Part shown: in pieces, positions 5,129-64,000 of the stretch | How positions within the stretch are numbered: the first letter of the stretch is position 1 | Layout: each line of letters starts with the position of its first letter | Assembly (NCBI RefSeq): GCF_024502345.1 | Contig: NZ_JALDNN010000001.1 | From: Escherichia coli | GTDB lineage: Bacteria; Pseudomonadota; Gammaproteobacteria; Enterobacterales; Enterobacteriaceae | Direction: 5' to 3' (one strand) | DNA length: 64,000 nucleotides | Notes under the pieces: generated by a model | What the model saw: only the letters and a program-made list of their open reading frames with translations | Databases searched by the model: none | What the model was told of the DNA's origin: nothing | Made by a program: the position numbers and the translations under genes

Positions 5129-5131
5129 AAT

Positions 5132-6066: not shown

Positions 6067-6813
6067 ATGTTAAAAAAGATACTTTTACTGGCTCTGCTTC
6101 CTGCAATCGCCATCGCAGAGGAACTTCCTGCTCCAGTAAAAGCGATTGAAAAACAGGGCATTACAATCATCAAAACGTTCGATGCCCCCGGAGGAATGAA
6201 AGGTTATCTCGGAAAGTATCAGGATATGGGCGTCACCATCTACCTGACTCCAGATGGTAAGCACGCTATCTCTGGTTATATGTACAACGAGAAAGGTGAA
6301 AACCTGAGTAACACACTTATCGAAAAAGAAATTTACGCACCAGCCGGACGCGAAATGTGGCAACGGATGGAACAATCCCACTGGCTCCTCGACGGTAAAA
6401 AAGACGCGCCGGTCATTGTCTACGTCTTCGCCGATCCGTTCTGCCCATATTGTAAACAGTTCTGGCAGCAGGCGCGCCCGAGGGTAGATTCTGGCAAAGT
6501 GCAATTAAGAACATTGTTGGTTGGGGTTATCAAGCCAGAAAGCCCGGCGACAGCAGCGGCAATTCTTGCCTCCAAAGATCCCGCAAAAACCTGGCAACAA
6601 TATGAAGCCTCTGGTGGCAAGCTTAAGCTAAACGTGCCTGCAAACGTAAGTACAGAGCAAATGAAAGTGTTAAGTGACAATGAGAAACTGATGGACGATC
6701 TGGGGGCAAATGTCACGCCGGCTATCTATTACATGAGTAAGGAAAATACGCTACAACAGGCCGTGGGGTTGCCCGATCAGAAAACGCTTAATATCATTAT
6801 GGGGAATAAATAA
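6067..6813 (+). CDS. dsbG: Periplasmic thiol:disulfide interchange protein DsbG, 248 aa
   Basis: ORF 6007..6813; start refined to [15 protein letters not shown] (signal peptide); CPYC active site present. Confidence 0.9.
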
Positions 6814-7021
6814 AAGGTAATTCATGGATGGTTGAACTATATCTCTGCTTTTCAACCATCCTAAAAAAGCATGAATTGCTCGCTCTGCCCTAAGTGGCTG
6901 TGCTATTTTAGAAAAACTTAATCCTGAGTTAAGCAAAAAAACATAATCAATAAAAATATATACGCAAAAAACATTGATTAAGTGAATATATCATGGAAGA
7001 AAAATATAACCGGAGTAGTGT

Positions 7022-7924: not shown

Positions 7925-8185
7925 TATATAACCTCAGACAGCTACTATAACTTTCACCTATTTATTCACAGCGCGAATGAAAAATAAAACACTCTGCTTT
8001 TCAGTGTTTACTTTATAATTAACAGTCTTATCTCACTGATCACCCTGTAACGTTCAGAGAGCGTCTTCAGATGTCTATTTATAAAATTCCTCTTCCGCTC
8101 AATATTCTGGAAGCTGCACGAGAGCGTATTACCTGGACACTCAACACCCTACCCCGCGTTTGTGTCTCATTTTCTGGCGGCAAAG

Positions 8186-9242
8186 GGCTTTGTTGAATAA
8201 ATCGAACTTTTGCTGAGTTGAAGGATCAGATCACGTATCTTCCCGACAACGCAGACCGTTCCGTGGCAAAGCAAAAGTTCAAAATCACCAACTGGCCCAC
8301 CTACAATAAAGCCCTCATCAACCGTGGCTCCATAACTTTCTGGCTGGATGATGAAGCTATTCAGGCCTGGTATGAGTCAGCAACACCTTCTTCACGAGGC
8401 AGACCTCAGCGCTATTCTGACCTTGCCATCACGACTGTGCTGGTCATTAAACGCGTATTCAGGCTGACCCTGCGCGCTGCGCAGGGCTTTATTGATTCCA
8501 TTTTTTCTCTGATGAACGTTCCGCTACGCTGCCCGGATTACAGCTGTGTCAGCAGGCGGGCAAAGTCGGTTAATGTCAGTTTCAAAACGCCCACCCGGGG
8601 TGAAATCGCACACCTGGTAATTGATTCCACCGGGCTGAAGGTCTTCGGTGAAGGCGAGTGGAAAGTCAAAAAGCATGGCCAGGAACGCCGCCGTATCTGG
8701 CGTAAGCTGCATCTCGCCGTTGACAGTAAAACACATGAAATCATCTGCGCTGACCTGTCGCTGAACAACGTTACGGACTCAGAGGCCTTCCCCGGGTTAA
8801 TCCGGCAAACCCACCGGAAAATCAGGTCAGCCGCCGCCGATGGCGCTTACGATACCCGGCTATGTCACGATGAACTGCGGCGTAAGAAAATCAGCGCGCT
8901 TATCCCTCCCCGAAAAGGTGCGGGTTACTGGCCCGGTGAATATGCAGACCGTAACCGTGCAGTGGCTAATCAGCGAATGACCGGGAGTAATGCGCGGTGG
9001 AAATGGACAACAGATTACAACCGTCGCTCGATAGCGGAAACGGCGATGTACCGGGTAAAACAGCTGTTCGGGGGTTCACTGACACTGCGTGACTACGATG
9101 GTCAGGTTGCAGAGGCTATGGCCCTGGTACGAGCGCTGAACAAAATGACGAAAGCAGGTATGCCTGAAAGCGTGCGTATTGCCTGAAAACACAACCCGCT
9201 ACGGGGGAGACTTACCCGAAATCTGATTTATTCAACAAAGCC
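8186..9242 (+). mobile_element. IS903-type insertion sequence (IS5 family), 1057 bp, with 18-bp terminal inverted repeats ggctttgttgaataaatc; 9-bp target duplication gcggcaaag at 8177-8185 and 9243-9251
   Basis: Terminal inverted repeats at 8186-8203 and 9225-9242; identical 9-bp direct repeats flank the element; one transposase ORF inside. Confidence 0.9.
8263..9186 (+). CDS. IS903 transposase (DDE, IS5 family); likely GTG start giving 307 aa (ORF track starts at TTG 8218)
   Basis: ORF 8218..9186; [38 protein letters not shown]... matches IS903/IS102 transposase. Confidence 0.85.
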   Translation: MAKQKFKITNWPTYNKALINRGSITFWLDDEAIQAWYESATPSSRGRPQRYSDLAITTVLVIKRVFRLTLRAAQGFIDSIFSLMNVPLRCPDYSCVSRRAKSVNVSFKTPTRGEIAHLVIDSTGLKVFGEGEWKVKKHGQERRRIWRKLHLAVDSKTHEIICADLSLNNVTDSEAFPGLIRQTHRKIRSAAADGAYDTRLCHDELRRKKISALIPPRKGAGYWPGEYADRNRAVANQRMTGSNARWKWTTDYNRRSIAETAMYRVKQLFGGSLTLRDYDGQVAEAMALVRALNKMTKAGMPESVRIA

Positions 9243-10329
9243 GCGGCAAAGACTCTGGTTTAATGCTGCATCTGACAGCCGAACTTGCCCGACAAATGGG
9301 CAAAAAAATCTGCGTTTTGTTTATCGACTGGGAGGCGCAATTCTCTTGCACCATTAACTATGTTCAGTCCCTGCGCGAGTTGTACACCGATGTCATCGAA
9401 GAGTTTTACTGGGTTGCGCTCCCGCTTACGACGCAAAATTCCCTTTCACAATACCAACCCGAATGGCAGTGCTGGGAACCTGATGTCGAATGGGTGCGTC
9501 AGCCCCCGCAAGATGCGATAACCGATCCTGACTTTTTCTGCTTTTACCAGCCAGGCATGACCTTCGAACAATTTGTACGTGAGTTTGCCGAATGGTTTTC
9601 ACAAAAACGTCCGGCGGCGATGATGATCGGCATCCGTGCGGATGAGTCCTACAACCGTTTTGTCGCCATCGCCAGTTTAAATAAACAACGTTTTGCCGAC
9701 GATAAACCCTGGACTACGGCCGCACCAGGCGGTCATAGCTGGTACATTTATCCCATTTACGACTGGAAAGTGGCTGATATCTGGACCTGGTATGCAAATC
9801 ATCAAAGTCTCTGCAACCCACTGTATAACCTAATGTATCAGGCAGGCGTTCCTCTGCGTCATATGCGAATTTGCGAACCTTTTGGCCCGGAGCAACGACA
9901 AGGATTATGGCTCTATCACGTTATCGAACCGGATCGCTGGGCTGCTATGTGCGCACGAGTCAGCGGGGTAAAAAGTGGCGGCATTTACGCCGGACATGAC
10001 AATCATTTCTATGGGCATCGGAAAATCCTCAAGCCAGAACATTTAGACTGGCAAGAATATGCATTATTGCTGCTCAATAGCATGCCGGAAAAAACAGCTG
10101 AGCATTACCGCAATAAAATCGCCATTTATTTGCACTGGTATCAGAAAAAAGGCATCGAGGTTCCACAAACCCAGCAAGGGGACATTGGCGCGAAAGATAT
10201 CCCCTCCTGGCGGCGGATATGCAAAGTTTTACTCAATAACGATTACTGGTGTCGGGCATTATCATTTAGTCCTACGAAAGCGAAGAACTATCAGCGTTAT
10301 AACAAACGGATAAAAGGAAAACGTCAGGA

Positions 10330-10959
10330 ATGGGGGATACTATGCAACAACGATTAACGCAGGATTTAACGCAATTTCTCGCCAGCTTGCCGGAAGATGA
10401 TCGCATCAAAGCGATTAATGAAATCCGCATGGCGATCCATCAGGTTAGCCCCTTTCGTGAAGAGCCAGTGGATTGCGTTCTGTGGGTTAAAAACAGCCAA
10501 CTTATGCCTAATGATTACAACCCAAACAACGTGGCACCACCCGAAAAAAAACTGCTGAAAAAATCCATTGAAATAGATGGTTTTACCCAACCCATTGTGG
10601 TCACGCATACGGATAAAAATGCCCTGGAAATCGTGGATGGTTTTCACCGCCATGAAATTGGTAAAGGCTCATCATCATTAAAATTACGCTTAAAAGGTTA
10701 TTTGCCGGTGACCTGTCTGGAAGGTACGCGTAATCAACGCATCGCCGCGACTATTCGTCATAATCGCGCTCGTGGACGCCATCAAATCACCGCCATGTCG
10801 GAAATCGTCCGTGAACTTAGCCAGTTGGGATGGGACGATAATAAAATTGGCAAAGAGCTGGGAATGGACAGCGACGAAGTGCTGCGCCTGAAGCAAATTA
10901 ACGGCCTGCAAGAGTTGTTTGCCGACCGTCAATATTCCCGCGCCTGGACGGTTAAATAG
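10330..10959 (+). CDS. ybdM: ParB/sulfiredoxin-like nuclease-domain protein YbdM, 209 aa
   Basis: ORF 10330..10959; overlaps the ybdN 3' end; ParB-like domain family. Confidence 0.85.
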   Translation: MGDTMQQRLTQDLTQFLASLPEDDRIKAINEIRMAIHQVSPFREEPVDCVLWVKNSQLMPNDYNPNNVAPPEKKLLKKSIEIDGFTQPIVVTHTDKNALEIVDGFHRHEIGKGSSSLKLRLKGYLPVTCLEGTRNQRIAATIRHNRARGRHQITAMSEIVRELSQLGWDDNKIGKELGMDSDEVLRLKQINGLQELFADRQYSRAWTVK

Positions 10960-12120
10960 CTAAAGCTGGCGCAGGCGTTCAGCGGCTGCCAGCAACGTCG
11001 ATTCCTTCTTGGCAAAACAGAGACGAATCAGTTTATGAGGGAAGGGATCGGCGCAAAACACCGATAGCGGAATCGCCGCTACGCCGTGCTCCTGCGTCAG
11101 CCACTGGCAAAACTCAACATCATCCAGGGTAGATACGGCGCTGTAATCCACCAGCAAAAAGTATGTACCTTCACACGGTAAAATCTCCAGCCGGCTTTCA
11201 TTTAAAGCATTCACCAGAATATCGCGCTTCTGGCGATAAAAGTCCGGTAACGCAAGATAATGCTCAGGTTCTGCACGTAGCATATCCGCAATTGCCAGCT
11301 GTGCCGGGGTATTTACCGAAAATGTCAGATACTGATGTACCTTGCGAATTTCGGCACTGATGGGCGCTGGCGCTATGCAATAACCCACTTTCCAGCCGGT
11401 CATATGATAGGTCTTGCCAAACGATGACACCGCCACTGCCCGCTCACGCAGCTGCGGATGCGCCAGCACACTGGCATGGCCCTGTTGTGAAAAGTTGATG
11501 TGCTCGTAGACTTCATCGCTAATGACAAAAATCTCGTGCCCGGCGATCGCCTGCCACAAAGCGGCGAAATCAGCCTGCTGCCAGACAGTTGCACTGGGAT
11601 TATGCGGAGTGTTGAGGATCACCAGTCTGGTGCGCTCGCTTAACAATGCGGCAAATTCCTGCCAGTCAACGCGAAAATGCGGTGGTTGCAGTGCCATACG
11701 CTTCACTATTCCCCCAGAAAGCGCGATAGCGGGAGCGTAACTGTCATAGCTGGGATCAAAACAAATCACTTCATCGCCATTGCGCACCAGTGCGGTAATC
11801 GCCGCGTATAACGCTTCCGTCGCCCCTGCCGTTACGGTGATATCGCTATCGGCATCTGGTTGATAGCCATACAAACGTTCCGTTTTCTGAGCAATCGCCT
11901 CGCGCAAGGCCTGCACGCCGGTCATGGGCGCGTATTGGTTTGCCCCCTGGGCAACGTGGTACGCCAGCCGCTCCTGTAAATAGCGCGGACCATCAAAATC
12001 AGGAAAGCCTTGCGACAGGTTAATCGCCTGGTGTTGCTGCGCCAGCGCGCTCATCTGGGTGAAAATAGTGGTGCCAAGTTGTGGAAGTTTGCTTTGTGGA
12101 ATCAGAGGGTTATTTGTCAT
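10960..12120 (-). CDS. ybdL: Methionine aminotransferase YbdL (PLP-dependent, class I aminotransferase), 386 aa
   Basis: ORF 10960..12120; MTNNPLIPQSKLPQLGTTIFTQMSALAQQHQAINLSQGFPDFDGP... matches YbdL. Confidence 0.92.
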   Translation of the reverse strand: MTNNPLIPQSKLPQLGTTIFTQMSALAQQHQAINLSQGFPDFDGPRYLQERLAYHVAQGANQYAPMTGVQALREAIAQKTERLYGYQPDADSDITVTAGATEALYAAITALVRNGDEVICFDPSYDSYAPAIALSGGIVKRMALQPPHFRVDWQEFAALLSERTRLVILNTPHNPSATVWQQADFAALWQAIAGHEIFVISDEVYEHINFSQQGHASVLAHPQLRERAVAVSSFGKTYHMTGWKVGYCIAPAPISAEIRKVHQYLTFSVNTPAQLAIADMLRAEPEHYLALPDFYRQKRDILVNALNESRLEILPCEGTYFLLVDYSAVSTLDDVEFCQWLTQEHGVAAIPLSVFCADPFPHKLIRLCFAKKESTLLAAAERLRQL

Positions 12121-12228
12121 TTTTATTGTACCTGACGAAGTTGCGTGTTGAAGGCACTATAACACGATGCTAGTATTTGGCAATCAAGACGTTTAGATGT
12201 CTAAATAAAACAATAAGGACAACACAAC

Positions 12229-13317
12229 ATGCCTCACAATCCTATCCGCGTGGTCGTCGGCCCGGCTAACTACTTTTCACATCCAGGAAGTTTCAATCAC
12301 CTGCACGATTTTTTCACTGATGAACAACTTTCTCGCGCGGTGTGGATCTACGGCGAACGCGCCATTGCTGCGGCGCAAACCAAACTTCCGCCAGCGTTTG
12401 GACTTCCAGGGGCAAAGCATATTTTGTTTCGTGGTCATTGCAGCGAAAGCGATGTACAGCAACTGGCGGCTGAGTCCGGTGACGATCGCAGCGTGGTGAT
12501 TGGCGTCGGCGGCGGCGCACTACTCGACACCGCGAAAGCCCTCGCCCGCCGTCTCGGTCTGCCATTTGTTGCCGCTCCAACGATCGCCGCCACCTGCGCC
12601 GCCTGGACACCGCTCTCCGTCTGGTATAACGATGCCGGACAGGCGCTGCATTATGAGATTTTCGACGACGCCAATTTTATGGTGCTGGTGGAACCAGAGA
12701 TTATCCTCAATGCGCCGCAACAATATCTGCTGGCGGGGATCGGTGACACGCTGGCGAAATGGTATGAAGCGGTGGTGCTGGCTCCGCAACCAGAAACGTT
12801 GCCGCTAACCGTGCGACTGGGGATCAATAATGCGAAGGCCATTCGCGACGTCTTGTTAAACAGTAGCGAACAGGCGCTGAGCGATCAGCAAAATCAACAG
12901 TTAACGCAATCATTTTGCGATGTGGTGGATGCCATTATCGCCGGAGGTGGAATGGTCGGTGGTTTGGGCGATCGTTTTACGCGTGTGGCGGCGGCTCATG
13001 CCGTGCATAACGGTCTGACCGTGCTGCCGCAAACCGAGAAGTTTCTTCACGGCACCAAAGTCGCCTACGGAATTCTGGTGCAAAGCGCCTTGCTGGGTCA
13101 GGATGATGTTCTGGCGCAATTAACCGGGGCGTATCAGCGTTTTCATCTGCCGACTACGCTGGCGGAGCTGGAAGTGGATATCAATAATCAGGCGGAGATC
13201 GACAAAGTGATTGCCCACACCTTGCGCCCGGTGGAGTCCATTCATTACCTGCCAGTCACGCTGACACCAGATACGTTGCGTGCAGCGTTCGAAAAAGTGG
13301 AATCGTTTAAAGCCTGA
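12229..13317 (+). CDS. ybdH: Iron-containing alcohol/hydroxycarboxylate dehydrogenase YbdH (glycerol-dehydrogenase-like), 362 aa
   Basis: ORF 12229..13317; GVGGGALLDTAKA motif of iron-type alcohol dehydrogenases. Confidence 0.9.
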   Translation: MPHNPIRVVVGPANYFSHPGSFNHLHDFFTDEQLSRAVWIYGERAIAAAQTKLPPAFGLPGAKHILFRGHCSESDVQQLAAESGDDRSVVIGVGGGALLDTAKALARRLGLPFVAAPTIAATCAAWTPLSVWYNDAGQALHYEIFDDANFMVLVEPEIILNAPQQYLLAGIGDTLAKWYEAVVLAPQPETLPLTVRLGINNAKAIRDVLLNSSEQALSDQQNQQLTQSFCDVVDAIIAGGGMVGGLGDRFTRVAAAHAVHNGLTVLPQTEKFLHGTKVAYGILVQSALLGQDDVLAQLTGAYQRFHLPTTLAELEVDINNQAEIDKVIAHTLRPVESIHYLPVTLTPDTLRAAFEKVESFKA

Positions 13318-36246: not shown

Positions 36247-36270
36247 TTGACAACATCTGGTACGATTCGC

Positions 36271-36735
36271 CCGCAGCCATCACTGACTGCGGGCGAAAGT
36301 GTAAAGCAGGTGCCTTACCACTCTGACCTGACAACCGGATATGCGGGGATTGCTCCCCGCACAACGGCTACTTCTTCGGTTCGTAAGCGAGAACAGCCTT
36401 AAACTCAATATTACGTTCCTTTACGGTGAACTCACACAGCGAGTCTCCGACCAGAAGCGTAAATCCCAGCACCGTCAAACACAGCACTATGACTGCCACA
36501 AGGGCATATTTCGTCAGCATGTTTATATTGCCTCCATGCGAAGAAGGGACTACCATCCGAGTTGTTCAGGTTCGGAGTGGCAGCCCCAGGATTGATAGAA
36601 ATATCTCCTGGGGCTTCATCTTTCCAAACCTCAGAGTTAACCTGAAACCGGAAAGCTTCAGGCACCCGCCGTTATCTTACCCTTCCTTAGCAAAATAGCT
36701 GTTTATTTATACAGTGAATCCTGTTTCGGACTTCT
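36271..36735 (-). other. Intact hok/sok-type type I toxin-antitoxin locus (copy 1), about 93% identical to the IS186-associated copy at 36769..36859 plus 38199..38588
   Basis: About 465-bp unit containing the mok/hok overlapping reading frames and flanking conserved leader and 3' sequences; repeated with point differences around IS186. Confidence 0.6.
36368..36520 (-). CDS. Hok-family small membrane toxin, 50 aa ([50 protein letters not shown]), with overlapping mok frame 36368..36556
   Basis: ORF 36368..36556; the last 50 codons are a canonical Hok toxin; differs by K to R at one position from the copy at 38220..38372. Confidence 0.75.
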
Positions 36736-36859
36736 GTCGGCAAAACTCATCATTGCTCTTAAAACGAAACCGCCCGCAGCCATCACTGACCGCGGGCGAA
36801 AGTGTAAAGCAGGTGCCTTACCATCCTGACCTGACAACCGGATATGCGGGGATTACTCC

Positions 36860-38198
36860 CATAAGCGCTAACTTAAGGGTTGAACCATCTGAAGAATGCG
36901 ACGCCTCGGTGCCTCGTTAAGACGATGCCTCGCGTTCTTCAATTGCGTTTTGTAGGCTGTCAGGGATACTGTCCCACGAATGGCCACCTGTAAGCTCCAG
37001 ATGACCATTTTTGTTATTCTCCACAACGAGTTAGTTCTTCTTTTCGGATCCGGCACTTCTGGGGGGGAAATCCAGCGATGGCTGGATTATGTCGTCAATT
37101 AAAAATGCGGCGAGTAGATTAGCAAATATCCACGCTTTCGCGAGTTCAGGTTCCTTTGCACGCAAAGCATCCAGGTGCAGCAAACTTTTGAGCCGCTTAA
37201 AAGCCAGTTCAATTTGCCATCGCAGACGGTAACAATCAGCCACTTGCTCTGCTGAATATTCATCTTCCGGTAATGATGTTAGCAATAGCACATGGCCCGC
37301 TGCTTCCAGCGTTTCCGCCTGAACTACTCGTCCTTTTCGACGATTCTCGCTGAGCAGTCGGGTTTTACTGATTAATGCTTTTTCGGGAGGAAGTGATACG
37401 GCAATGAGACGTGCCGGAAAGGGAGCTCCGGCTTTTTTATTACCTGAATTGCCTATCATTACAGTGGTTTCACCGTTCTTACCGCAATCCAGCCCGCGCA
37501 GAAAACCCATCATGTCAAAGCGCATTCCTTCTGCAGTTAACCAGCGCAATCCTCGCCAGTGAACCCGGACGATATAATCAGCTTCTCCAAAAGCAAGTGA
37601 GCGGATACATTCGGGACGCGAACCGAATCCCCGGTCAGCAATGCGTATCTCGTCTGCCGTTTGCGCAAATCGGTCCAGCCGTTCAGCGTCTCTGCTGTCG
37701 GTTAGCTCAAAATCAGTGAACTGACAGGTATGAGGATCATATCCCATATGTAGTCGCCATTCAGCGCTGCCGCCCCCGGGCGCACTGATTGCTGTTCCAT
37801 CGACAAGACGCAATCTCTTTCCGCTTGTACAACCCGTAACTGCGGCGCGCACAGCAAGTGTTTGTGCGGCAAGTATGCCAAACCAGTCGGCGGCATTCCG
37901 CAGCCGCTTCAGGAGAGCCACGTCAGATAATGTTGCAACGTCATGGAGCTGAGCCCATGCAGTGACTTCACGTAATGACATCCCCCCGGGGCCGTAAGCC
38001 AGCCCCAGACGTAGCAGAGTTGCAGCATCACGAATTTCGCGGCGGCGGGTTAGAGCCCCGGCATTACGTGCCGAAGTATCCAGTTCTTCGGGCTTACCAA
38101 TATGGGCCAGAATTGCTGACCAGTTATCGTGAGAGTAATTCATCGGCACGTTAAATCATATCAGGCGTAATACCACAACCCTTAAGTTAGCGCTTATG
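36860..38198 (-). mobile_element. IS186 (IS4 family), about 1339 bp, terminal inverted repeats cataagcgctaacttaagggttg; 10-bp target duplication ggattactcc at 36850-36859 and 38199-38208
   Basis: Inverted repeats at both ends, flanking direct repeat, and an InsL transposase ORF inside. Confidence 0.88.
37031..38143 (-). CDS. insL: IS186 transposase InsL, 370 aa
   Basis: ORF 37031..38149; (MP)MNYSHDNWSAILAHIGKPEELDTSARNAGALTRRREIRDAATLLRLGLAYG... matches IS186 transposase. Confidence 0.9.
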   Translation of the reverse strand: MNYSHDNWSAILAHIGKPEELDTSARNAGALTRRREIRDAATLLRLGLAYGPGGMSLREVTAWAQLHDVATLSDVALLKRLRNAADWFGILAAQTLAVRAAVTGCTSGKRLRLVDGTAISAPGGGSAEWRLHMGYDPHTCQFTDFELTDSRDAERLDRFAQTADEIRIADRGFGSRPECIRSLAFGEADYIVRVHWRGLRWLTAEGMRFDMMGFLRGLDCGKNGETTVMIGNSGNKKAGAPFPARLIAVSLPPEKALISKTRLLSENRRKGRVVQAETLEAAGHVLLLTSLPEDEYSAEQVADCYRLRWQIELAFKRLKSLLHLDALRAKEPELAKAWIFANLLAAFLIDDIIQPSLDFPPRSAGSEKKN

Positions 38199-38219
38199 GG
38201 ATTACTCCCCGCACAACGG

Positions 38220-38372
38220 CTACTTCTTCGGTTCGTAAGCGAGAACAGCCCTGAACTCAATATTACGTTCCTTCACCGTAAACTCACACAGCGAGTCTCC
38301 GACCAGAAGCGTAAATCCCAGTACCGTCAAACACAGCACTATGACTGCCACAAGGGCATATTTCGTCAGCAT
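38220..38372 (-). CDS. hokE: Hok-family toxin HokE, 50 aa; IS186 lies about 21 bp downstream of its stop codon
   Basis: ORF 38220..38516; the last 50 codons [50 protein letters not shown]. Confidence 0.75.
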
Positions 38373-38812
38373 GTTTATATTGCCTCCATGCGAAGAAGGA
38401 ACTACCATCCAAATTGTCTGGTTTGGAGTGGCAGCCCCAGGGTTGATAGAAATATCTCCTGGGGCTTCATCTTTCCAGACCTCAGAGTAAACCTGAAACC
38501 GGAAAGCTTCAGGCACCCGCCGTTATCTTACCCTTCCTCAACAAAATAGCTGTTTATTTATACAGTAAATCCTGTTTCGGACTTCTCACTCCTCATTTAA
38601 TCAACTGAAGCTGAGCCCGTTTTTTCTGCATGCCTCAATCGTCAAAATTCTTCGCCACCAGCCAGCCGTGCCATAACTTGTCACATTGCAAAAGTAGCCA
38701 AATTGCTTCAGGCACCATCAGTTCACCATCACCAAAAAAAGAAACATTCCAGAACTTCCGCATCTCGCCCAGCCGCTCCGACTTCTATACTGAATAGAAA
38801 ACGCCAACATAA

Positions 38813-55276: not shown

Positions 55277-58235
55277 CCTTAATCGCGTCATCGGATGGTC
55301 TGGTTTACTGCTGACGTCTTTATTGAGTACCAGCGCACTCGCAGACAATATCGGCACCAGCGCAGAAGAGCTGGGGCTGAGCGATTATCGCCATTTTGTT
55401 ATTTATCCCCGTCTCGATAAGGCGCTGAAGGCACAGAAAAATAACGACGAAGCAACCGCCATCCGCGAATTTGAATATATACACCAGCAGGTGCCGGATA
55501 ATATTCCGCTGACTTTATACCTTGCGGAAGCCTATCGCCATTTTGGTCATGATGACCGGGCGCGGCTGTTGCTTGAGGATCAACTGAAACGTCACCCAGG
55601 AGATGCCCGACTTGAGCGCAGTCTGGCGGCTATTCCGGTTGAAGTGAAAAGCGTTACAACTGTTGAAGAACTGCTTGCCCAGCAAAAAGCGTGCGATGCT
55701 GCGCCGACCCTGCGTTGTCGCAGTGAAGTCGGGCAGAATGCCCTGCGGCTTGCACAGTTACCTGTCGCCAGAGCGCAACTGAACGATGCGACGTTTGCTG
55801 CATCGCCGGAAGGAAAAACGCTGCGAACCGATCTGCTGCAACGGGCAATCTACCTGAAACAATGGTCCCAGGCAGATACGCTATACAATGAAGCACGCCA
55901 GCAGAACACATTAAGCGCGGCAGAACGCCGTCAGTGGTTTGACGTGCTTCTTGCCGGGCAGCTGGACGATCGGATCCTGGCACTGCAATCACAGGGGATC
56001 TTCACCGATCCTCAGTCATATATTACTTACGCGACCGCGCTGGCTTATCGTGGCGAAAAAGCACGCCTCCAGCATTATCTCATTGAAAATAAGCCGCTGT
56101 TTACCACGGACGCACAAGAGAAAAGTTGGCTCTATCTGTTATCTAAATACAGCGCCAACCCCGTTCAGGCATTGGCGAATTATACGGTGCAGTTTGCCGA
56201 TAACCGCCAGTATGTTGTTGGCGCGACGCTACCGGTGCTGTTAAAAGAAGGTCAGTACGACGCAGCGCAAAAACTGCTCGCCACCCTCCCCGCCAATGAA
56301 ATGCTTGAGGAGCGTTATGCTGTCAGCGTGGCGACCCGTAACAAGGCTGAAGCTCTGCGTCTGGCACGATTGCTGTATCAGCAAGAACCGGCAAATCTTA
56401 CCCGCCTGGATCAACTGACCTGGCAACTGATGCAGAACGAGCAGTCACGCGAAGCTGCCGATTTATTGCTGCAACGCTATCCTTTCCAGGGCGATGCGCG
56501 TGTCAGCCAGACTTTAATGGCGCGACTGGCGTCTCTGCTGGAAAGTCATCCTTACCTGGCAACGCCGGCGAAGGTGGCGATTTTATCGAAACCCTTACCG
56601 CTGGCGGAGCAACGTCAGTGGCAAAGTCAGTTGCCGGGTATTGCAGATAATTGCCCGGCAATAGTTCGCTTGCTGGGCGATATGTCGCCTTCCTACGATG
56701 CTGCCGCCTGGAACCGTCTGGCAAAGTGTTATCGGGACACGCTACCCGGTGTGGCGCTGTATGCATGGCTTCAGGCCGAACAACGACAACCGAACGCCTG
56801 GCAACATCGTGCGGTAGCCTATCAGGCGTATCAGGTTGAGGACTACGCCACCGCACTGGCGGCCTGGCAGAAAATCAGTCTTCACGACATGAGCAATGAG
56901 GATCTGCTTGCTGCTGCCAATACCGCCCAGGCGGCAGGAAATGGTGCAGCTCGCGATCGCTGGCTACAACAGGCAGAACAACGTGGACTGGGAAACAATG
57001 CCCTCTACTGGTGGCTGCATGCGCAACGTTACATTCCTGGTCAGCCGGAACTCGCACTGAGCGATCTCACGCGCTCAATCAATATTGCGCCTTCTGCCAA
57101 CGCTTACGTTGCGCGGGCGACAATTTATCGCCAACGTCATAATGTCCCGGCGGCGGTGAGTGATTTGCGCGCCGCGCTGGAACTGGAACCGAATAATAGC
57201 AACATCCAGGCAGCGCTTGGTTACGCCTTGTGGGATAGCGGTGATATCGCACAGTCGCGGGAAATGCTCGAACAGGCGCATAAAGGGCTACCGGACGATC
57301 CGGCACTGATCCGACAACTGGCCTATGTGAACCAGCGTCTGGATGACATGCCTGCGACGCAGCACTACGCCCGGCTGGTGATTGATGACATTGATAATCA
57401 GGCGCTGATAACCCCACTGACCCCAGAGCAAAATCAGCAACGCTTCAATTTCCGCCGTTTGCATGAGGAGGTCGGTCGCCGCTGGACGTTCAGTTTCGAT
57501 TCTTCCATCGGCTTGCGTTCCGGCGCAATGAGTACCGCTAACAATAATGTCGGCGGCGCAGCGCCAGGGAAAAGCTATCGTAGCTACGGACAACTGGAAG
57601 CCGAGTACCGCATCGGACGCAATATGCTGCTGGAAGGCGACCTGCTCTCAGTTTATAGCCGCGTCTTTGCCGATACCGGAGAAAACGGGGTGATGATGCC
57701 GGTGAAAAATCCGATGTCCGGCACCGGTCTGCGCTGGAAGCCGCTGCGCGATCAGATCTTTTTCCTCGCCGTCGAACAGCAGTTGCCGCTGAACGGGCAA
57801 AATGGCGCATCCGATACCATGCTGCGCGCCAGCGCCTCATTCTTTAATGGCGGCAAATACAGCGACGAATGGCACCCGAACGGTTCAGGCTGGTTTGCCC
57901 AAAACCTGTACCTCGATGCGGCGCAATATATCCGCCAGGATATTCAGGCGTGGACGGCAGATTATCGCGTCAGCTGGCATCTGAAGGTAGCTAACGGACA
58001 GACTATTGAGCCTTACGCTCACGTTCAGGACAACGGCTATCGTGATAAAGGCACTCAGGGCGCGCAGCTTGGCGGAGTCGGGGTCCGCTGGAATATCTGG
58101 ACCGGCGAGACGCACTACGACGCCTGGCCGCACAAAGTCAGTCTCGGCGTCGAGTATCAACATACCTTTAAGGCGATTAATCAACGTAACGGAGAGCGCA
58201 ACAACGCGTTTCTCACCATTGGAGTGCACTGGTAA
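55263..58235 (+). CDS. nfrA: NfrA (phage N4 adsorption protein A; outer-membrane TPR-containing protein), 990 aa
   Basis: ORF 55242..58235 trimmed to MKENNLNRVIGWSGLLLTSLLSTSALA (signal peptide); overlaps the nfrB 3' end. Confidence 0.93.
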   Translation: MKENNLNRVIGWSGLLLTSLLSTSALADNIGTSAEELGLSDYRHFVIYPRLDKALKAQKNNDEATAIREFEYIHQQVPDNIPLTLYLAEAYRHFGHDDRARLLLEDQLKRHPGDARLERSLAAIPVEVKSVTTVEELLAQQKACDAAPTLRCRSEVGQNALRLAQLPVARAQLNDATFAASPEGKTLRTDLLQRAIYLKQWSQADTLYNEARQQNTLSAAERRQWFDVLLAGQLDDRILALQSQGIFTDPQSYITYATALAYRGEKARLQHYLIENKPLFTTDAQEKSWLYLLSKYSANPVQALANYTVQFADNRQYVVGATLPVLLKEGQYDAAQKLLATLPANEMLEERYAVSVATRNKAEALRLARLLYQQEPANLTRLDQLTWQLMQNEQSREAADLLLQRYPFQGDARVSQTLMARLASLLESHPYLATPAKVAILSKPLPLAEQRQWQSQLPGIADNCPAIVRLLGDMSPSYDAAAWNRLAKCYRDTLPGVALYAWLQAEQRQPNAWQHRAVAYQAYQVEDYATALAAWQKISLHDMSNEDLLAAANTAQAAGNGAARDRWLQQAEQRGLGNNALYWWLHAQRYIPGQPELALSDLTRSINIAPSANAYVARATIYRQRHNVPAAVSDLRAALELEPNNSNIQAALGYALWDSGDIAQSREMLEQAHKGLPDDPALIRQLAYVNQRLDDMPATQHYARLVIDDIDNQALITPLTPEQNQQRFNFRRLHEEVGRRWTFSFDSSIGLRSGAMSTANNNVGGAAPGKSYRSYGQLEAEYRIGRNMLLEGDLLSVYSRVFADTGENGVMMPVKNPMSGTGLRWKPLRDQIFFLAVEQQLPLNGQNGASDTMLRASASFFNGGKYSDEWHPNGSGWFAQNLYLDAAQYIRQDIQAWTADYRVSWHLKVANGQTIEPYAHVQDNGYRDKGTQGAQLGGVGVRWNIWTGETHYDAWPHKVSLGVEYQHTFKAINQRNGERNNAFLTIGVHW

Positions 58236-59126
58236 ATGCGTAAGTTCATTTTCGTATTGCTGACACTGCTTTTGGTCAGCCCTTTTTCCTTTGCGATGAA
58301 AGGTATTATCTGGCAACCACAAAACCGTGATAGTCAGGTTACCGATACCCAGTGGCAGGGGCTGATGAGTCAGTTACGTTTGCAAGGCTTCGATACCTTG
58401 GTTTTGCAATGGACCCGTTACGGCGATGCATTCACCCAGCCAGAACAGCGCGCGTTATTGTTTAAGCGTGCCGCAGCTGCGCAACAGGCTGGCCTGAAGC
58501 TGATTGTCGGGCTGAACGCCGATCCGGAATTTTTTATGCACCAGAAACAGTCGTCCGCAGCGCTGGAAAGCTATCTTAATCGCCTGCTGGCTGCCGATCT
58601 CCAGCAAGCCAGATTATGGAGCGCCGCGCCTGGCATAACGCCGGATGGCTGGTACATCAGCGCGGAAATTGACGACCTGAACTGGCGCAGCGAAGCTGCC
58701 CGTCAGCCTTTGCTAACATGGTTAAACAACGCGCAGCGGCTGATTAGCGATGTTTCAGCAAAACCGGTTTATATCAGTAGTTTTTTCGCCGGAAACATGT
58801 CGCCCGATGGCTATCGCCAACTGCTGGAACACGTTAAAGCAACCGGCGTTAATGTTTGGGTACAGGATGGCAGCGGCGTGGATAAACTGACCGCTGAACA
58901 GCGTGAACGTTATCTACAGGCCAGCGCCGATTGCCAAAGTTCCGCCCCAGCAAGCGGCATTGTTTATGAACTGTTTGTCGCCGGCAAAGGCAAAACCTTT
59001 ACAGCGAAACCGAAACCGGACGCAGAAATTGCCTCGCTGTTAGCGAAACGTTCCTCTTGCGGTAAAGACACGCTCTATTTCTCTCTGCGCTATTTGCCCG
59101 TCGCGCACGGCATTCTCGAGTATTAA
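58236..59126 (+). CDS. ybcH: YbcH (DUF4434 family, secreted), 296 aa
   Basis: ORF 58236..59126; starts 1 nt after the nfrA stop, so likely co-transcribed. Confidence 0.85.
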   Translation: MRKFIFVLLTLLLVSPFSFAMKGIIWQPQNRDSQVTDTQWQGLMSQLRLQGFDTLVLQWTRYGDAFTQPEQRALLFKRAAAAQQAGLKLIVGLNADPEFFMHQKQSSAALESYLNRLLAADLQQARLWSAAPGITPDGWYISAEIDDLNWRSEAARQPLLTWLNNAQRLISDVSAKPVYISSFFAGNMSPDGYRQLLEHVKATGVNVWVQDGSGVDKLTAEQRERYLQASADCQSSAPASGIVYELFVAGKGKTFTAKPKPDAEIASLLAKRSSCGKDTLYFSLRYLPVAHGILEY

Positions 59127-59308
59127 ATCTCCTCCAGGTAAGTCGGGTACGACCTGGCTTACCTCTTTCGCTCTCGTCAGAATTCCATCAAGATTAATTG
59201 CTAAAAAGCATGCTAAAGAAAGAAGATCGTTATCGGCGAACGGGCCGATCACTCATGCAGGAAGCATAGATCCTTTGAGCGGAGTTTCTGATATCTGAGG
59301 AGTGCGAA

Positions 59309-60070
59309 ATGCAATTGAGCAGCAGTGAACCTTGCGTGGTGATCCTGACCGAAAAAGAGGTAGAGGTAAGCGTCAATAACCATGCTACGTTTACCCTTCC
59401 GAAAAACTACCTGGCCGCCTTCGCGTGCAACAATAACGTCATTGAACTCTCAACGTTAAATCACGTATTAATCACCCACATCAACCGTAACATCATCAAC
59501 GATTATCTGTTGTTTTTAAATAAGAACTTAACCTGTGTAAAGCCCTGGTCGCGGCTGGCTACCCCGGTTATCGCTTGTCATAGCCGTACACCGGAAGTGT
59601 TCCGGCTAGCCGCCAACCACAGCAAGCAGCAACCCAGCAAACCCTGCGAAGCGGAGTTGACGCGCGCATTGCTTTTTACCGTATTGTCTAACTTTCTTGA
59701 GCAATCGCGGTTTATTGCCCTACTGATGTATATCTTACGCAGCAGCGTCCGCGACAGCGTCTGCCGCATTATTCAAAGCGATATTCAGCACTACTGGAAT
59801 CTGCGAATTGTCGCCAGTTCGCTATGTTTAAGCCCCAGCCTGCTCAAAAAGAAATTAAAAAACGAAAATACCAGCTATAGCCAGATTGTCACAGAGTGTC
59901 GTATGCGTTACGCCGTACAGATGTTATTGATGGATAACAAAAATATCACTCAGGTGGCGCAATTATGTGGCTATAGCAGCACGTCGTACTTTATCTCTGT
60001 TTTTAAGGCGTTTTACGGCCTGACACCGTTGAATTATCTCGCCAAACAGCGACAAAAAGTGATGTGGTGA
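59309..60070 (+). CDS. envY: AraC-family transcriptional regulator EnvY, 253 aa
   Basis: ORF 59309..60070; C-terminal AraC-type helix-turn-helix (...NITQVAQLCGYSSTSYFISVFKAFYGLTPLNYL). Confidence 0.88.
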   Translation: MQLSSSEPCVVILTEKEVEVSVNNHATFTLPKNYLAAFACNNNVIELSTLNHVLITHINRNIINDYLLFLNKNLTCVKPWSRLATPVIACHSRTPEVFRLAANHSKQQPSKPCEAELTRALLFTVLSNFLEQSRFIALLMYILRSSVRDSVCRIIQSDIQHYWNLRIVASSLCLSPSLLKKKLKNENTSYSQIVTECRMRYAVQMLLMDNKNITQVAQLCGYSSTSYFISVFKAFYGLTPLNYLAKQRQKVMW

Positions 60071-60114
60071 AGAGCAAAGCGGAACGGATAAGACGGGGTT
60101 AAATGAAGAAGAAA

Positions 60115-60159
60115 TGGCGCGCCCTGCAGGATTCGAACCTGCGGCCCACGACTTAGAAG
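60115..60159 (-). pseudogene. pauD: 3' fragment of a tRNA-Arg(UCU) gene (argU-like attachment-site remnant, pauD-like); acceptor/T-arm through the anticodon region only
   Basis: tggcgcgccctgcaggattcgaacctgcggcccacgacttagaag is the reverse complement of the 3' 45 nt of tRNA-Arg(UCU); the 5' half is absent. Confidence 0.7.
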
Positions 60160-60581
60160 TTCCTAGAACGACATTTTAAGTCAACAAATTACCGCGCCAT
60201 CTCTGCGCTCATACGTCCCACTACCTCAAAACATGTAAAGCCTTGCAAGCCATTGTGAGGCCTTATGTGTCTCAGTTTTGTCCCTCTTTTTTGTACTAAA
60301 AAACATAGCAATTGAGGATAAACCTCATGCTATTTTCGCTTATATGCCTTTAAAGGCATGGCGCTTAAATAGATAAAAACACCACAAAATCATAAAAAAC
60401 CACACAGTAAAACCGCAACATAAAACAATAACAGATAATTAAACCAAAAACAGATAGCGCATTGTGATAATCATTCAATACTAAACAAAATATAAACAGT
60501 GGAGCAATATGTGATTGACTCATTAAGTTAGATATAAAAAATACATATTCAATCATTAAAACGATTGAATGGAGAACTTTT

Positions 60582-60832
60582 ATGCGGGCGAAACTTCTGG
60601 GAATAGTTCTGACAACCCCTATTGCGATCAGCTCTTTTGCTTCTACCGAGACTATATCGTTTACTCCTGACAACATAAATGCGGACATTAGTCTTGGAAC
60701 TCTGAGCGGAAAAACAAAAGAGCGCGTTTATCTAGCTGAAGAAGGAGGCCGAAAAGTCAGTCAACTCGACTGGAAATTCAATAACGCTGCAATTATTAAA
60801 GGTGCAATTAATTGGGATTTGATGCCCCAGAT
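60582..60832 (+). pseudogene. ompT: Outer membrane protease OmpT, truncated after about codon 84 by IS903 (only the signal peptide and first about 60 mature residues remain)
   Basis: ORF 60582..60863; MRAKLLGIVLTTPIAISSFASTETISFTPDNINADISLGTLSGKTKERVYLAEEGGRKVSQLDWKFNNAAIIKGAINWDLMPQ then reads into the IS903 inverted repeat. Confidence 0.85.
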
Positions 60833-61889
60833 GGCTTTGTTGAATAAATCGAACTTTTGCTGAGTTGAAGGATCAGATCACGTATCTTCCCGACAACGCA
60901 GACCGTTCCGTGGCAAAGCAAAAGTTCAAAATCACCAACTGGCCCACCTACAATAAAGCCCTCATCAACCGTGGCTCCATAACTTTCTGGCTGGATGATG
61001 AAGCTATTCAGGCCTGGTATGAGTCAGCAACACCTTCTTCACGAGGCAGACCTCAGCGCTATTCTGACCTTGCCATCACGACTGTGCTGGTCATTAAACG
61101 CGTATTCAGGCTGACCCTGCGCGCTGCGCAGGGCTTTATTGATTCCATTTTTTCTCTGATGAACGTTCCGCTACGCTGCCCGGATTACAGCTGTGTCAGC
61201 AGGCGGGCAAAGTCGGTTAATGTCAGTTTCAAAACGCCCACCCGGGGTGAAATCGCACACCTGGTAATTGATTCCACCGGGCTGAAGGTCTTCGGTGAAG
61301 GCGAGTGGAAAGTCAAAAAGCATGGCCAGGAACGCCGCCGTATCTGGCGTAAGCTGCATCTCGCCGTTGACAGTAAAACACATGAAATCATCTGCGCTGA
61401 CCTGTCGCTGAACAACGTTACGGACTCAGAGGCCTTCCCCGGGTTAATCCGGCAAACCCACCGGAAAATCAGGTCAGCCGCCGCCGATGGCGCTTACGAT
61501 ACCCGGCTATGTCACGATGAACTGCGGCGTAAGAAAATCAGCGCGCTTATCCCTCCCCGAAAAGGTGCGGGTTACTGGCCCGGTGAATATGCAGACCGTA
61601 ACCGTGCAGTGGCTAATCAGCGAATGACCGGGAGTAATGCGCGGTGGAAATGGACAACAGATTACAACCGTCGCTCGATAGCGGAAACGGCGATGTACCG
61701 GGTAAAACAGCTGTTCGGGGGTTCACTGACACTGCGTGACTACGATGGTCAGGTTGCAGAGGCTATGGCCCTGGTACGAGCGCTGAACAAAATGACGAAA
61801 GCAGGTATGCCTGAAAGCGTGCGTATTGCCTGAAAACACAACCCGCTACGGGGGAGACTTACCCGAAATCTGATTTATTCAACAAAGCC
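60833..61889 (+). mobile_element. Second IS903-type element, 1057 bp, same orientation as the copy at 8186..9242 and apparently identical; no target-site duplication (flanks gccccagat / tcgctgaaa)
   Basis: Same 18-bp terminal inverted repeats at 60833-60850 and 61872-61889; left flank is ompT, right flank is the interior of an IS3-family element. Confidence 0.88.
60910..61833 (+). CDS. IS903 transposase (copy 2), 307 aa from GTG (ORF track 60865..61833)
   Basis: Translation identical to the transposase at 8263..9186. Confidence 0.85.
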
Positions 61890-62080
61890 TCGCTGAAAGT
61901 GGAATGTATCCATGGAGAACACTTTATCAGCCGGGAAATAATGCGGGCAACGGTGTTTAATTATATCGAATGTGATTACAATCGGTGGCGGCGGCACAGT
62001 TGGTGTGGCGGCCTCAGTCCGGAACAATTTGAAAACCAGAACCTCGCTTAGGCCTGTGTCCATATTACGTGGGTAGGATC
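61890..62080 (+). mobile_element. 3' remnant (about 190 bp) of an IS3-family element: last about 50 codons of the OrfB transposase (...[28 protein letters not shown]) plus right inverted repeat ending ...ggtaggatca
   Basis: Open frame from the IS903 junction to a TAG at 62047-62049, followed by an IS3-group-like terminal repeat ending CA. Confidence 0.6.
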
Positions 62081-62331
62081 ACACCTTCTTCCACACTTTC
62101 TGGAACATTTAGGTAACAACCATCTGGATATTGGTGTTGGAACTGGGTTTTACCTTACTCACGTACCTGAGAGTAGTCTGATATCTTTAATGGATTTGAA
62201 CGAAGCTAGCCTGAACGCGGCATCTACAAGGGCTGGGGAATCAAAAATTAAACATAAAATTAACCATTGATGTAGCCCCCTGAAACACCGGACAGTAGCT
62301 GTATCTCCAGATAAGAGATAGGCTTGAATAT

Positions 62332-62727
62332 ATGTCTAACACTAACGCCAATTTTGAGATGACCGGGATCCTGTTAGGGCAAGAAGTCCGTAAACGTAAA
62401 ACTCCTCAGGAGAAGATCGCCATTATCCAGCAGACGATGGAGCCGGGTATGAATGTCTCCCATGTCGCCCGCCTGCATGGTATCCAGCCCAGCCTGCTGT
62501 TTAAGTGGAAGAAGCAATATCAGGAAGGCAGCCTCACCGCCGTTGCGGCTGGAGAGGAAGTCGTTCCTGCTTCTGAGCTTACTGCTGCTCTGAAGCAGGT
62601 CCGGGAGCTTCAGCGCCTTCTGGGCAAGAAAACGATGGAAGTTGAGATCCTGAAAGAAGCCGTGGAGTACGGTCAGTCGCGAAAATGGATAGCGCACGCG
62701 CCCTTGTTGCCAAAGGACGGGGAATAG
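62332..62727 (+). CDS. IS2-group transposase OrfA (helix-turn-helix DNA-binding subunit), 131 aa
   Basis: ORF 62332..62727; clearly related to, but not identical with, IS2 InsC as I recall it (shared blocks [46 protein letters not shown]...LKEAVEYG). Confidence 0.8.
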
Positions 62728-63566
62728 CCATGGTCAGCCGGACCATGGGCGTGTCGCGTGCGCAACTGTCACTGCGGATTAACCGTTCTGCCGACTGGCA
62801 GGACAGGCGCTGTAACCGGCGTAATGAAGAAGCAGACGCAGAAATACTGTCGGCTATCCTCAACATTATCAGCGATATGCCGAGTTATGGTTATCGACGC
62901 GTGTGGGGCATCCTGCGCAAGCAACGTCGCACAGAGGGACAGCCACCTGTGAATGCCAAACGGCTTTACAGGATAATGAGCGAGCATAACCTGTTGTTGT
63001 TGCATCACAAACCAGAGCGACCGAAGCGTGAACATAAGGGCAAGATAGCGGTGGCAGAAAGCGATATGCGCTGGTGTTCAGATGGCTTCGAGTTCGGCTG
63101 CGACAACGGCGAAAAACTGCGGGTAACGTTCGCGCTGGACTGCTGCGACCGTGAGGCCATAGACTGGGCAGCAAGCACGGGAGGCTATGACAGTTCGACC
63201 GTGCAGGATGTGATGCTGAGGTCGGTGGAAAAGCGCTTCGGCGACAGGTTGCCCGACACAGCGGTGCAGTGGCTGACGGATAACGGTTCAGCGTATACCG
63301 CGTATGAAACGCGGAGGTTCGCGAGAGAGCTGAATCTGGAGCCCTGCACAACAGCGGTGAGCAGCCCGCAGAGTAATGGCATGGCCGAACGGTTCGTGAA
63401 AACGATGAAAGAAGACTATATCGCGTTCATGCCAAAACCGGATGTGAGAACAGCACTGCGAAACCTTGCAGTAGCGTTCACGCATTACAATGAAAACCAC
63501 CCGCACAGCGCGCTGGGATATCACTCCCCGAGGGAATACCGGCGGCAGCGGACATCGTTAACTTAA
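62685..63566 (+). CDS. IS2-group transposase OrfB (DDE integrase domain), 293 aa as an ORF; probably expressed as an OrfAB fusion by -1 frameshifting
   Basis: ORF 62685..63566 in the -1 frame relative to orfA with a 43-nt overlap; conserved [42 protein letters not shown] blocks. Confidence 0.8.
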
Positions 63567-63672
63567 GATACAAAAGCTGTTCGGAGATGGAGGGTCAAGA
63601 TCACATAAAATTAACCATGATGTTTTTGAACCTTATCCCGCGGCGTTACATGGTCAATTTGATTCCATTTCC

Positions 63673-63972
63673 ATGTTTTACCTTCTTCACTGCCTGCCTG
63701 GAAATATATCTACAAAAAGCTGTGTAATACGCAATGCGGCGCAGGCCTTAACTGACGATGGAACTCTATACGGAGCCACAATTCTTGGCGATGGAGTTGT
63801 GCACAATAGCTTCGGTCAAAAACTGATGCGCATTTACAATCAGAAAGGCATCTTTTCAAACACAAAAGATTCCGAAGAAGGCTTAACACATATACTCTCA
63901 GAGCATTTCGAGAATGTTAAAACCAAGGTTCAAGGTACTGTAGTAATGTTTTCCGCTTCAGGGAAAAAATAG
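63673..63972 (+). CDS. Hypothetical protein, 99 aa, no recognisable family
   Basis: ORF 63673..63972 just beyond the IS2-group element; identity unknown; could be a spurious ORF. Confidence 0.25.
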   Translation: MFYLLHCLPGNISTKSCVIRNAAQALTDDGTLYGATILGDGVVHNSFGQKLMRIYNQKGIFSNTKDSEEGLTHILSEHFENVKTKVQGTVVMFSASGKK

Positions 63973-64000
63973 CATCCAACCGCAGCACGTTCTTGCATAA

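Follow-up and report, generated by a model that had tools for sequence, protein, structure and literature searches.

tRNA genes are common integration sites, and the closest described relative of the locus reported here is DLP12, the cryptic lambdoid prophage of Escherichia coli K-12, whose annotated gene order from its right boundary is ompT, appY, tfaX, ybcY, tfaD, aaaD and nohD. The prophage-free layout is known from strain GD33 (locus L007), in which envY, argU and fimZ follow one another without interruption. In many E. coli the neighbour of ompT or appY is an intact homologue of ybcY, encoding a protein of 222 amino acids (aa), and a layout lacking appY also exists, as in E. coli SCU-104, where the methyltransferase gene lies directly after ompT. 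Among the insertion sequences (ISs) found at the locus, ISEcl1 has been listed as an element of 1336 bp belonging to the IS3 family (PMC5001619, Table 2), and 14-bp direct repeats have been noted for it (PMC10913469).

The window analysed here is a stretch of 64,000 nucleotides of E. coli (assembly GCF_024502345.1, contig NZ_JALDNN010000001.1), towards the end of which a fragment of argU is followed by ompT, ybcY and several ISs. We put a probability of about 90% on the reading that this locus is the ordinary right (attR) end of a DLP12-type lambdoid cryptic prophage in argU, the same as in K-12, which has been degraded by ISs. That is to say, it represents the IS-mediated decay of an already known cryptic prophage, and no new strain-specific DNA begins here; the damage consists of three ISs plus one deletion that took most of ompT and, if it was present, appY.

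Features of the Locus

The argU-like fragment, truncated ompT, IS903, IS3 remnant, IS2-group element and 99-aa open reading frame (ORF) listed in the original prediction were all found at, or within a few bases of, the places assigned to them (Table 1). The matches are identity-based with E-values of about 0, so they are not due to chance.

Table 1. Features of the prophage end and of the related IS903B copy, in window coordinates.
Feature	Coordinates	Strand	Evidence and remarks
IS903B, second copy	8186..9242	+	100% identical to the copy at 60833-61889, same orientation; 9-bp duplication gcggcaaag on both sides
envY, AraC-family regulator, last chromosomal gene before the prophage junction	59309..60070	+	253-aa ORF; Pfam HTH_AraC/HTH_18; collinear with K-12
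argU tRNA-Arg(UCU), 3′-terminal 45 nt, attR core of a DLP12-type prophage	60115..60159	-	BLAST and comparison with GD33
ompT 5′ fragment, codons 1-83 of 317	60582..60832	+	Pfam Omptin E=2e-22, profile positions 1-60 of 283 only; collinear with K-12
IS903B, complete (IS5 family), transposase 60865-61833	60833..61889	+	1057 bp; Pfam DDE_Tnp_1_5 and DDE_Tnp_1
IS3 right-end remnant, nt 1067-1258 of 1258	61890..62081	+	99% to K-12 IS3C 567843-568034
ybcY fragment 1, class I SAM-dependent methyltransferase, residues 44-105	62082..62267	+	99% to K-12 ybcY 582692-582501; translation matches the 222-aa protein
Target duplication, left copy, 15 bp CATAAAATTAACCAT	62253..62267	+	occurs only once at this site in L017 and L002, where it is uninterrupted
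ISEcl1, complete (IS3 family, IS2 group); orfA 62332-62727, orfB 62685-63566	62268..63603	+	1336 bp, TG...CA ends
Target duplication, right copy, 15 bp	63604..63618	+	perfect repeat of the left copy
ybcY fragment 2, residues about 101-222 and stop	63604..63972	+	98.7% to K-12 582521-582124

The argU Junction and Collinearity with K-12

The argU fragment extends from the anticodon loop to CCA and corresponds to nucleotides 33-77 of the gene. In BLAST, window 60113-60162 matches K-12 argU at 49 of 50 positions, and when the fragment is set against the complete tRNA of GD33, whose site is unoccupied, the match stops at 60159, which gives the break point. Neither ARAGORN nor Rfam (E-value mode) detected a whole tRNA in the region, as expected for a fragment. 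The original prediction, which took this fragment for a prophage integration junction with accessory DNA beyond it, was right on both points, the accessory DNA being prophage. It had also supposed that K-12 gene order ends at the fragment, which proved incorrect: in the K-12 annotation the corresponding position is the right boundary of DLP12 (586056), and K-12 has the same fragment there, followed by the same ompT.

Window 55000-60832 is 98.7% identical to K-12 591217-585383, and collinearity is unbroken up to codon 83 of ompT, where it stops at 60832 (K-12 585383); the ompT reading frame runs on into IS903 as far as 60863. Collinearity resumes at window 62081-62273 and 63603-64000, which together correspond to K-12 582692-582124 (98.7-99%), that is, at ybcY after the IS cluster, so the proposal that the window ends in strain-specific DNA is incorrect. 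Compared with K-12, 2,690 bp are gone, comprising the 3′ part of ompT, appY, tfaX and the 5′ end of ybcY; the reported absence of appY from the window is borne out. However, the ancestor may have been appY-less as in SCU-104, in which case the loss of host DNA would amount to only 1,061 bp and appY would never have been present. A comparison of single-nucleotide differences against appY-containing and appY-less layouts gave identities of 98.3-100% and did not discriminate between them as the ancestral state.

The Divided ybcY Gene

The window keeps residues 44-222 of YbcY in two pieces, the first 43 codons and the promoter being lost. Fragment 1 is 99.5% identical to the intact gene in the pig isolate NT1N25, and fragment 2 is 100% identical both to NT1N25 and to a metagenome contig (L017). 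The intact 222-aa homologue matches Methyltransf_12/23/25/11 in Pfam above the cut-offs and has a Rossmann-type methyltransferase domain, and the 99-aa ORF at 63673-63972 taken alone has no Pfam match. This ORF is real, as originally described, but it is not an unidentified gene: comparison of translations showed that it is no independent gene and consists of the C-terminal 99 residues of YbcY, read from an internal Met.

The Insertion Sequences

The IS903B next to ompT has 18-bp terminal inverted repeats and a single DDE transposase ORF, as its family should, and is 98.7% identical to the annotated IS903B of NT1N25. No 9-bp target duplication surrounds it, the flanks (tgccccagat and tcgctgaaag) being different, which points to a rearrangement at one end. 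The adjoining IS3 remnant of 192 bp carries the last 50 codons of orfB, with a Pfam rve_2 match on ORF 61899-62051, together with the right inverted repeat, and it ends exactly at the right terminus of IS3, abutting ybcY. Since only this remnant is left, the IS3 element is non-functional.

ISEcl1 splits the remaining ybcY. Many E. coli chromosomes and plasmids of enterobacteria carry copies with which the one in the window agrees at 100% over its 1336 bp; one of these is annotated as ‘ISEcl1’ in OV141395.1. ISEcl2, which is associated with qnrS1, was considered as the identity of this IS2-like element and dropped, since the annotated record and the published size table point to ISEcl1. Its orfA (Pfam HTH_Tnp_1) and orfB (Pfam rve) overlap in the -1 frame, and copies in other genomes are annotated with ‘programmed frameshift’. 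The nearest named relative is IS2 and not IS3, as OrfB has 62.5% amino acid identity to InsD of IS2 versus 22% to InsF of IS3; OrfA is 75% identical to InsC of K-12 IS2, and the nucleotide identity to IS2 is 69.5%. The two elements share the arrangement of two overlapping ORFs (HTH_Tnp_1, then rve) and the TG...CA ends, but they differ in target duplication, which is 5 bp for K-12 IS2A and 15 bp for ISEcl1 here, with 15-16 bp at 8 independent sites. The long duplication is therefore a property of ISEcl1 and gives no reason to doubt the identity of the element.

A separate observation is that target duplications of 15-16 bp, three times the 5 bp of IS2 and longer by about one helical turn, are made consistently by ISEcl1 and also by relatives (ISEc48 among them) with roughly 78% identity to it. 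Exceptions in the survey were a plasmid copy beside repA (L015) and a decayed copy (L020), both without flanking duplication, and a 95% variant (L021) flanked by only 5 bp. Among the GTDB species representatives the ISEcl1 left end occurred at one Enterobacter asburiae locus, which does not include the right end and was left out of the survey. A tentative explanation, to which we give somewhat less than even odds, is that in the ISEcl1-type transpososome of the IS3 family the strand-transfer sites lie about one helical turn further apart than those of IS2. Such wider spacing may not have been systematically described before: in the literature outside ISfinder, no systematic account of IS2-group elements making 15-bp duplications was found, and the 14-bp direct repeats cited above are one passing mention.

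Occurrence Elsewhere and the Sequence beyond the Window

The diagnostic junctions were found in 0 of 5,426 complete RefSeq E. coli genomes. The IS3/ybcY junction taken singly was likewise found in none, and no genome contained the whole arrangement at a coverage of at least 80%, the best (68%) being an unrelated strain with IS903B in ompT. It follows that no intermediate states were seen among these genomes, save for one metagenome contig, OGCV01002408.1, which has the identical IS3/ybcY junction without ISEcl1. This sibling contig is 100% identical to window 63603-64000 and runs on into a gene for a Pin-like invertase, a tail-fibre assembly gene, a gpA terminase fragment and Nu1, its ORFs carrying the domains Resolvase/HTH_7, Caudo_TAP, GpA_ATPase and Phage_Nu1. 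Judging from this contig, whose overlap with the window is only 0.6 kb, the DNA past the window end is probably standard prophage content. The opposite prophage end (attL), with an integrase gene and a complete argU, would likewise lie past position 64000.

Proposed History and Alternative Explanations

By comparison, the ancestral order was envY, the argU 3′ fragment (attR), ompT, appY and tfaX (if present), ybcY and further prophage remnants. On this basis a history in three steps may be proposed. First, IS3 would have inserted at codon 43/44 of ybcY, oriented so that its right end pointed towards the 3′ part of the gene. Then an IS903B-associated deletion would have joined codon 83 of ompT to nt 1067 of IS3, removing the rest of ompT, appY and tfaX (if present), the 5′ end of ybcY and 1066 bp of IS3, and leaving IS903B without target duplication; the missing duplication would thus be due to the associated deletion. 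Finally, ISEcl1 would have inserted by ordinary transposition into the remaining ybcY fragment, giving rise to the 15-bp duplication. That ISEcl1 arrived after IS3 is indicated by OGCV01002408.1, since it has the IS3/ybcY junction and lacks ISEcl1. The most likely route of the deletion is an IS903 adjacent deletion by intramolecular transposition. Homologous recombination between two IS903B copies, one in ompT and the other inside the IS3 of ybcY, leaving one hybrid IS903B, is a less probable but still serious candidate: another identical copy in direct orientation makes multiple copies and recent activity plausible in this strain, and such recombination would be expected to yield exactly what is seen, a complete IS whose 9-bp flanks do not match. 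However, this route needs two independent IS903 insertions within 1-4 kb where the adjacent deletion needs one, and the two leave the same end product and are indistinguishable in this sequence.

The decay of a DLP12-type prophage end also has to be weighed against two explanations of a different kind. It was originally suggested that K-12 synteny stops at the tRNA-Arg fragment and that the window enters a strain-specific island or a novel prophage with an IS-littered edge; appY is indeed absent, and the 4.7-kb stretch is reproduced in no complete E. coli genome. We regard this as very improbable, because the tRNA fragment itself stands at the DLP12 boundary in K-12 and each non-IS base past it matches K-12 DLP12 at 98.7-99% in the K-12 order (ompT, then ybcY), whereas an island would consist of DNA absent from K-12. 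The standard prophage content downstream that would contradict a strain-specific reading is essentially what the sibling contig provides, as it runs on into DLP12-like remnants. ISs are, moreover, a classic cause of mis-assembly, and as the window has two copies of IS903B that are 100% identical, the IS junctions might have been mis-joined, the true genome having an intact ompT-appY-ybcY region and the ISs elsewhere. Such an artefact is more improbable still: all junctions lie exactly at IS termini and none inside shared repeats, the IS3/ybcY junction occurs independently in a metagenome contig, the perfect 15-bp duplication on either side of ISEcl1 is what this element typically produces, and a mis-join would not yield a piece of IS3 that ends at an IS903 terminus.

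Biological and Annotation Consequences

Under the favoured reading of a decayed prophage end, the locus probably contains no functional system and is only a scar, and the strain is predicted to be without functional OmpT protease and without AppY, with ybcY dead. Loss of OmpT and AppY could alter protease-dependent phenotypes and the AppY-controlled regulation of acid phosphatase and hydrogenase. In annotations, the 99-aa ORF ought to appear as a fragment of ybcY instead of a new gene. The IS junctions are absent from all 5,426 complete E. coli genomes and could therefore be of use as markers of a lineage. In summary, the locus clearly illustrates how ISs erode a cryptic prophage step by step, and it is of little import beyond annotation.

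Comparison with Known Prophage Ends

In the pig isolates NT1N25 and NT1W25, ompT is likewise interrupted by IS903B. However, in NT1N25 the element lies at another position in ompT (after about codon 255), so it is an independent insertion, and a simple one without deletion, because both halves of ompT, appY and an intact methyltransferase gene are retained. With DLP12 of K-12, the locus shares the integration site, marked by the argU 3′ fragment beside envY, and the sequence, order and orientation of the ompT 5′ part and ybcY, at 98.7-99% identity. The differences are that the window has IS903B and the 192-bp IS3 remnant in place of 2,690 bp and that its ybcY is further split by ISEcl1, whereas ybcY of K-12, an annotated pseudogene, contains no IS, and the IS3 and IS5 of K-12 itself lie elsewhere in the prophage, in renD and nmpC.

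Comparison with K-12 at the Right End of DLP12

In the annotation of K-12 MG1655, the cryptic prophage DLP12 occupies 564755–586056, and its right end is arranged in the order nohD, aaaD, tfaD, ybcY (pseudogene), tfaX, appY and ompT, beyond which lie the chromosomal genes envY, ybcH and nfrA. When the window was compared with this region by BLAST, collinearity was found to extend to codon 83 of ompT and to restart inside ybcY. The tRNA fragment is the attR junction of DLP12, which is present in K-12 too; that is to say, the original prediction was right in placing a prophage junction at the tRNA gene, but not in ending K-12 gene order there. No complete tRNA was found in the region by ARAGORN or Rfam, and the end of the fragment was set at 60159 by aligning to the window the unoccupied site of GD33, whose order is envY, complete tRNA-Arg and fimZ. 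The part absent from the window is K-12 582693–585382 (2,690 bp). In K-12 this segment holds the 3′ part of ompT, then appY and tfaX, and lastly the region upstream of ybcY with the initial 114 nt of that gene.

The right end of DLP12 is polymorphic among E. coli (loci L001, L002, L003 and that of K-12, L006). In some strains the layout is ompT, appY, a tfa fragment and a methyltransferase gene, while in SCU-104 ompT is directly followed by the methyltransferase gene and then by ferritin-like and catalase genes. The methyltransferase gene is intact in many strains and annotated as a pseudogene in K-12.

Features of the window and their K-12 counterparts (envY and later ORFs read from 59000–64000)
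Feature	Position	Strand	K-12 counterpart	Basis
sok matches	36512–36667 and 38364–38518	minus		Rfam
Transposase ORF, 372 aa, between the two hok/sok-type loci	37031–38149	minus		
nfrA to ompT 5′ part	55000–60832		591217–585383	BLAST, 98.7% identity
envY	59309–60070			ORF reading; AraC-type HTH by Pfam
tRNA fragment	60113–60162		argU	BLAST, 49/50
tRNA-Arg(UCU) 3′ end, 45 nt	60115–60159	reverse complement		Sequence reading
ompT start	60582			ORF reading; Pfam Omptin, first 60 profile positions only
Transposase ORF, 322 aa	60865–61833			Pfam DDE_Tnp_1
IS3 remnant	61890–62085		right end of IS3C	BLAST, 99% identity
50-aa ORF	61899–62051			Pfam rve_2
ybcY, first piece	62081–62273		582692–582501	BLAST, 99% identity
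orfA/orfB pair	62332–62727/62685–63566			Pfam HTH_Tnp_1 + rve
ybcY, second piece	63603–64000		582521–582124	BLAST, 98.7% identity
99-aa ORF	63673–63972			ORF reading

Elsewhere in the window, 36268–38586 contains two hok/sok-type loci, 95% identical over 390 bp. The 372-aa ORF is presumably IS186 InsL, as judged from the hokE/IS186 arrangement of K-12, and the stretch would be a toxin–antitoxin locus that has been duplicated and either is interrupted by an IS or lies on both sides of one.

Identity of the Sequence after the IS Cluster

The mobile elements listed originally were all confirmed. However, the window end, which had been regarded as probably strain-specific DNA, is ybcY of K-12 DLP12 (98.7–99%). 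The IS3 remnant at 61890–62081 is exactly nt 1067–1258 of IS3, and it ends at the right terminus of IS3, where ybcY sequence starts. The 99-aa ORF, formerly called unidentified, has no Pfam match when taken alone. ybcY was reconstructed by joining 62082–62267 to 63619–63972, dropping ISEcl1 and one copy of its duplication, and the joined pieces form an open frame corresponding to residues 44–222 of a 222-aa class I SAM-dependent methyltransferase with one residue different. Since the joined frame matches these residues, the 99-aa ORF is, as read from the sequence, the C-terminus of YbcY beginning at an internal methionine. The gene of the 222-aa protein (Pfam Methyltransf_12/23/25/11 when intact) adjoins ompT or appY in many E. 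coli.

The metagenome contig OGCV01002408.1, retrieved by the IS3/ybcY junction, has the same junction without ISEcl1, begins 54 nt inside IS3 and is 100% identical to window 63603–64000. Past ybcY it carries an 88-aa ORF, a Pin-like serine invertase (Resolvase + HTH_7) and a tail-fibre assembly gene (Caudo_TAP), and further on a gpA terminase fragment followed by Nu1. It matches NT1N25 at 97–99%, and its tail-fibre assembly part matches K-12 tfaD at 92%. Judged by gene content, this downstream DNA of a sibling contig is ordinary for a DLP12-like cryptic prophage, which speaks against a strain-specific region. Among 5,426 complete RefSeq E. coli genomes, none covers at least 80% of 59300–64000 and none has the IS3/ybcY junction; the arrangement is strain- or lineage-specific, and all its parts are known.

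IS903B and the Order of Events

IS903B at 60833–61889 (1057 bp, 98.7% identity to annotated IS903B) has no 9-bp duplication in its flanks and therefore marks a rearrangement site. A second copy at 8186–9242, 100% identical and in the same orientation, has the perfect 9-bp duplication gcggcaaag. Some 51.6 kb lies between these copies and could be deleted or duplicated through them; among complete genomes, GD33 alone covers window 5000–12500 in full, including an IS903B. The pig isolates NT1N25 and NT1W25 carry an independent IS903B at another position in ompT (NZ_CP075484.1, 7285–9304), so ompT has been struck by IS903B more than once.

As IS3 is truncated by IS903, it must already have been present in ybcY when the IS903-associated deletion took place. 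ISEcl1 was inserted later than IS3, since OGCV01002408.1 has the IS3/ybcY junction without it. At the deletion, an intact end of IS903 meets new DNA, and no duplication is present. Adjacent deletion by intramolecular transposition is known behaviour of IS903, and a single copy would have sufficed for it here. Recombination between two IS903 copies would give a junction of this kind as well, so the product fits both routes, but recombination is less economical, and single-copy adjacent deletion is favoured on this ground. From an ancestor with the appY-less layout of SCU-104, the loss of host DNA would have been only 1,061 bp. The event is of a known kind, in which IS elements erode the DLP12 cryptic prophage.

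ISEcl1 and Its Target Duplications

ISEcl1 occupies 62268–63603 (1336 bp, TG...CA ends). One database record labels this 1336-bp element ISEcl1, and ISEcl1 has been tabulated as a 1336-bp member of the IS3 family (PMC5001619). Copies with 100% identity are carried by the chromosomes of many E. coli and by plasmids of Klebsiella, Enterobacter, Citrobacter and Salmonella. Amino-acid identity to the K-12 IS2 proteins is 75% for OrfA and 62.5% for OrfB, against only 22% between OrfB and its IS3 counterpart; therefore, the IS2-group label given at first reading is correct. Four E. coli records show ISEcl1 broken in turn by an IS110-family element (two pieces, 2,502 bp span), and such insertion may be recurrent and targeted.

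On either side of the window copy stands CATAAAATTAACCAT, a perfect direct repeat of 15 bp whose sequence is single-copy at uninterrupted sites. Eight independent insertions (window copy, ETEC1720, S43, H1, AL.H8, LZYWN_4, AREA_C483 and ABWA45; the S43 site, shared with strain 81, was counted once) showed duplications of 15, 15, 16, 15, 15, 16, 15 and 16 bp. In three relatives (SCU-171, ISEc48 on pUMNK88_K88 and AH01), whose nucleotide identity is about 78%, the duplication is likewise 15 bp, with a single mismatch in one of them. The exceptions are a variant of 1333 bp that shares 95% identity with ISEcl1 and has only the 5-bp repeat TCATG (NZ_CP147085.1, 87692–89324), and two copies without a flanking repeat, one on a plasmid adjoining repA (L015) and one decayed on a chromosome (L020). 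In the literature on long ISEcl1-type duplications, only a passing mention of 14-bp direct repeats was found (PMC10913469), so a long ISEcl1 duplication had been seen before. Compared with the 5-bp duplication of K-12 IS2A, that of ISEcl1 is 15–16 bp, and the excess of about 10–11 bp would correspond to about one helical turn.
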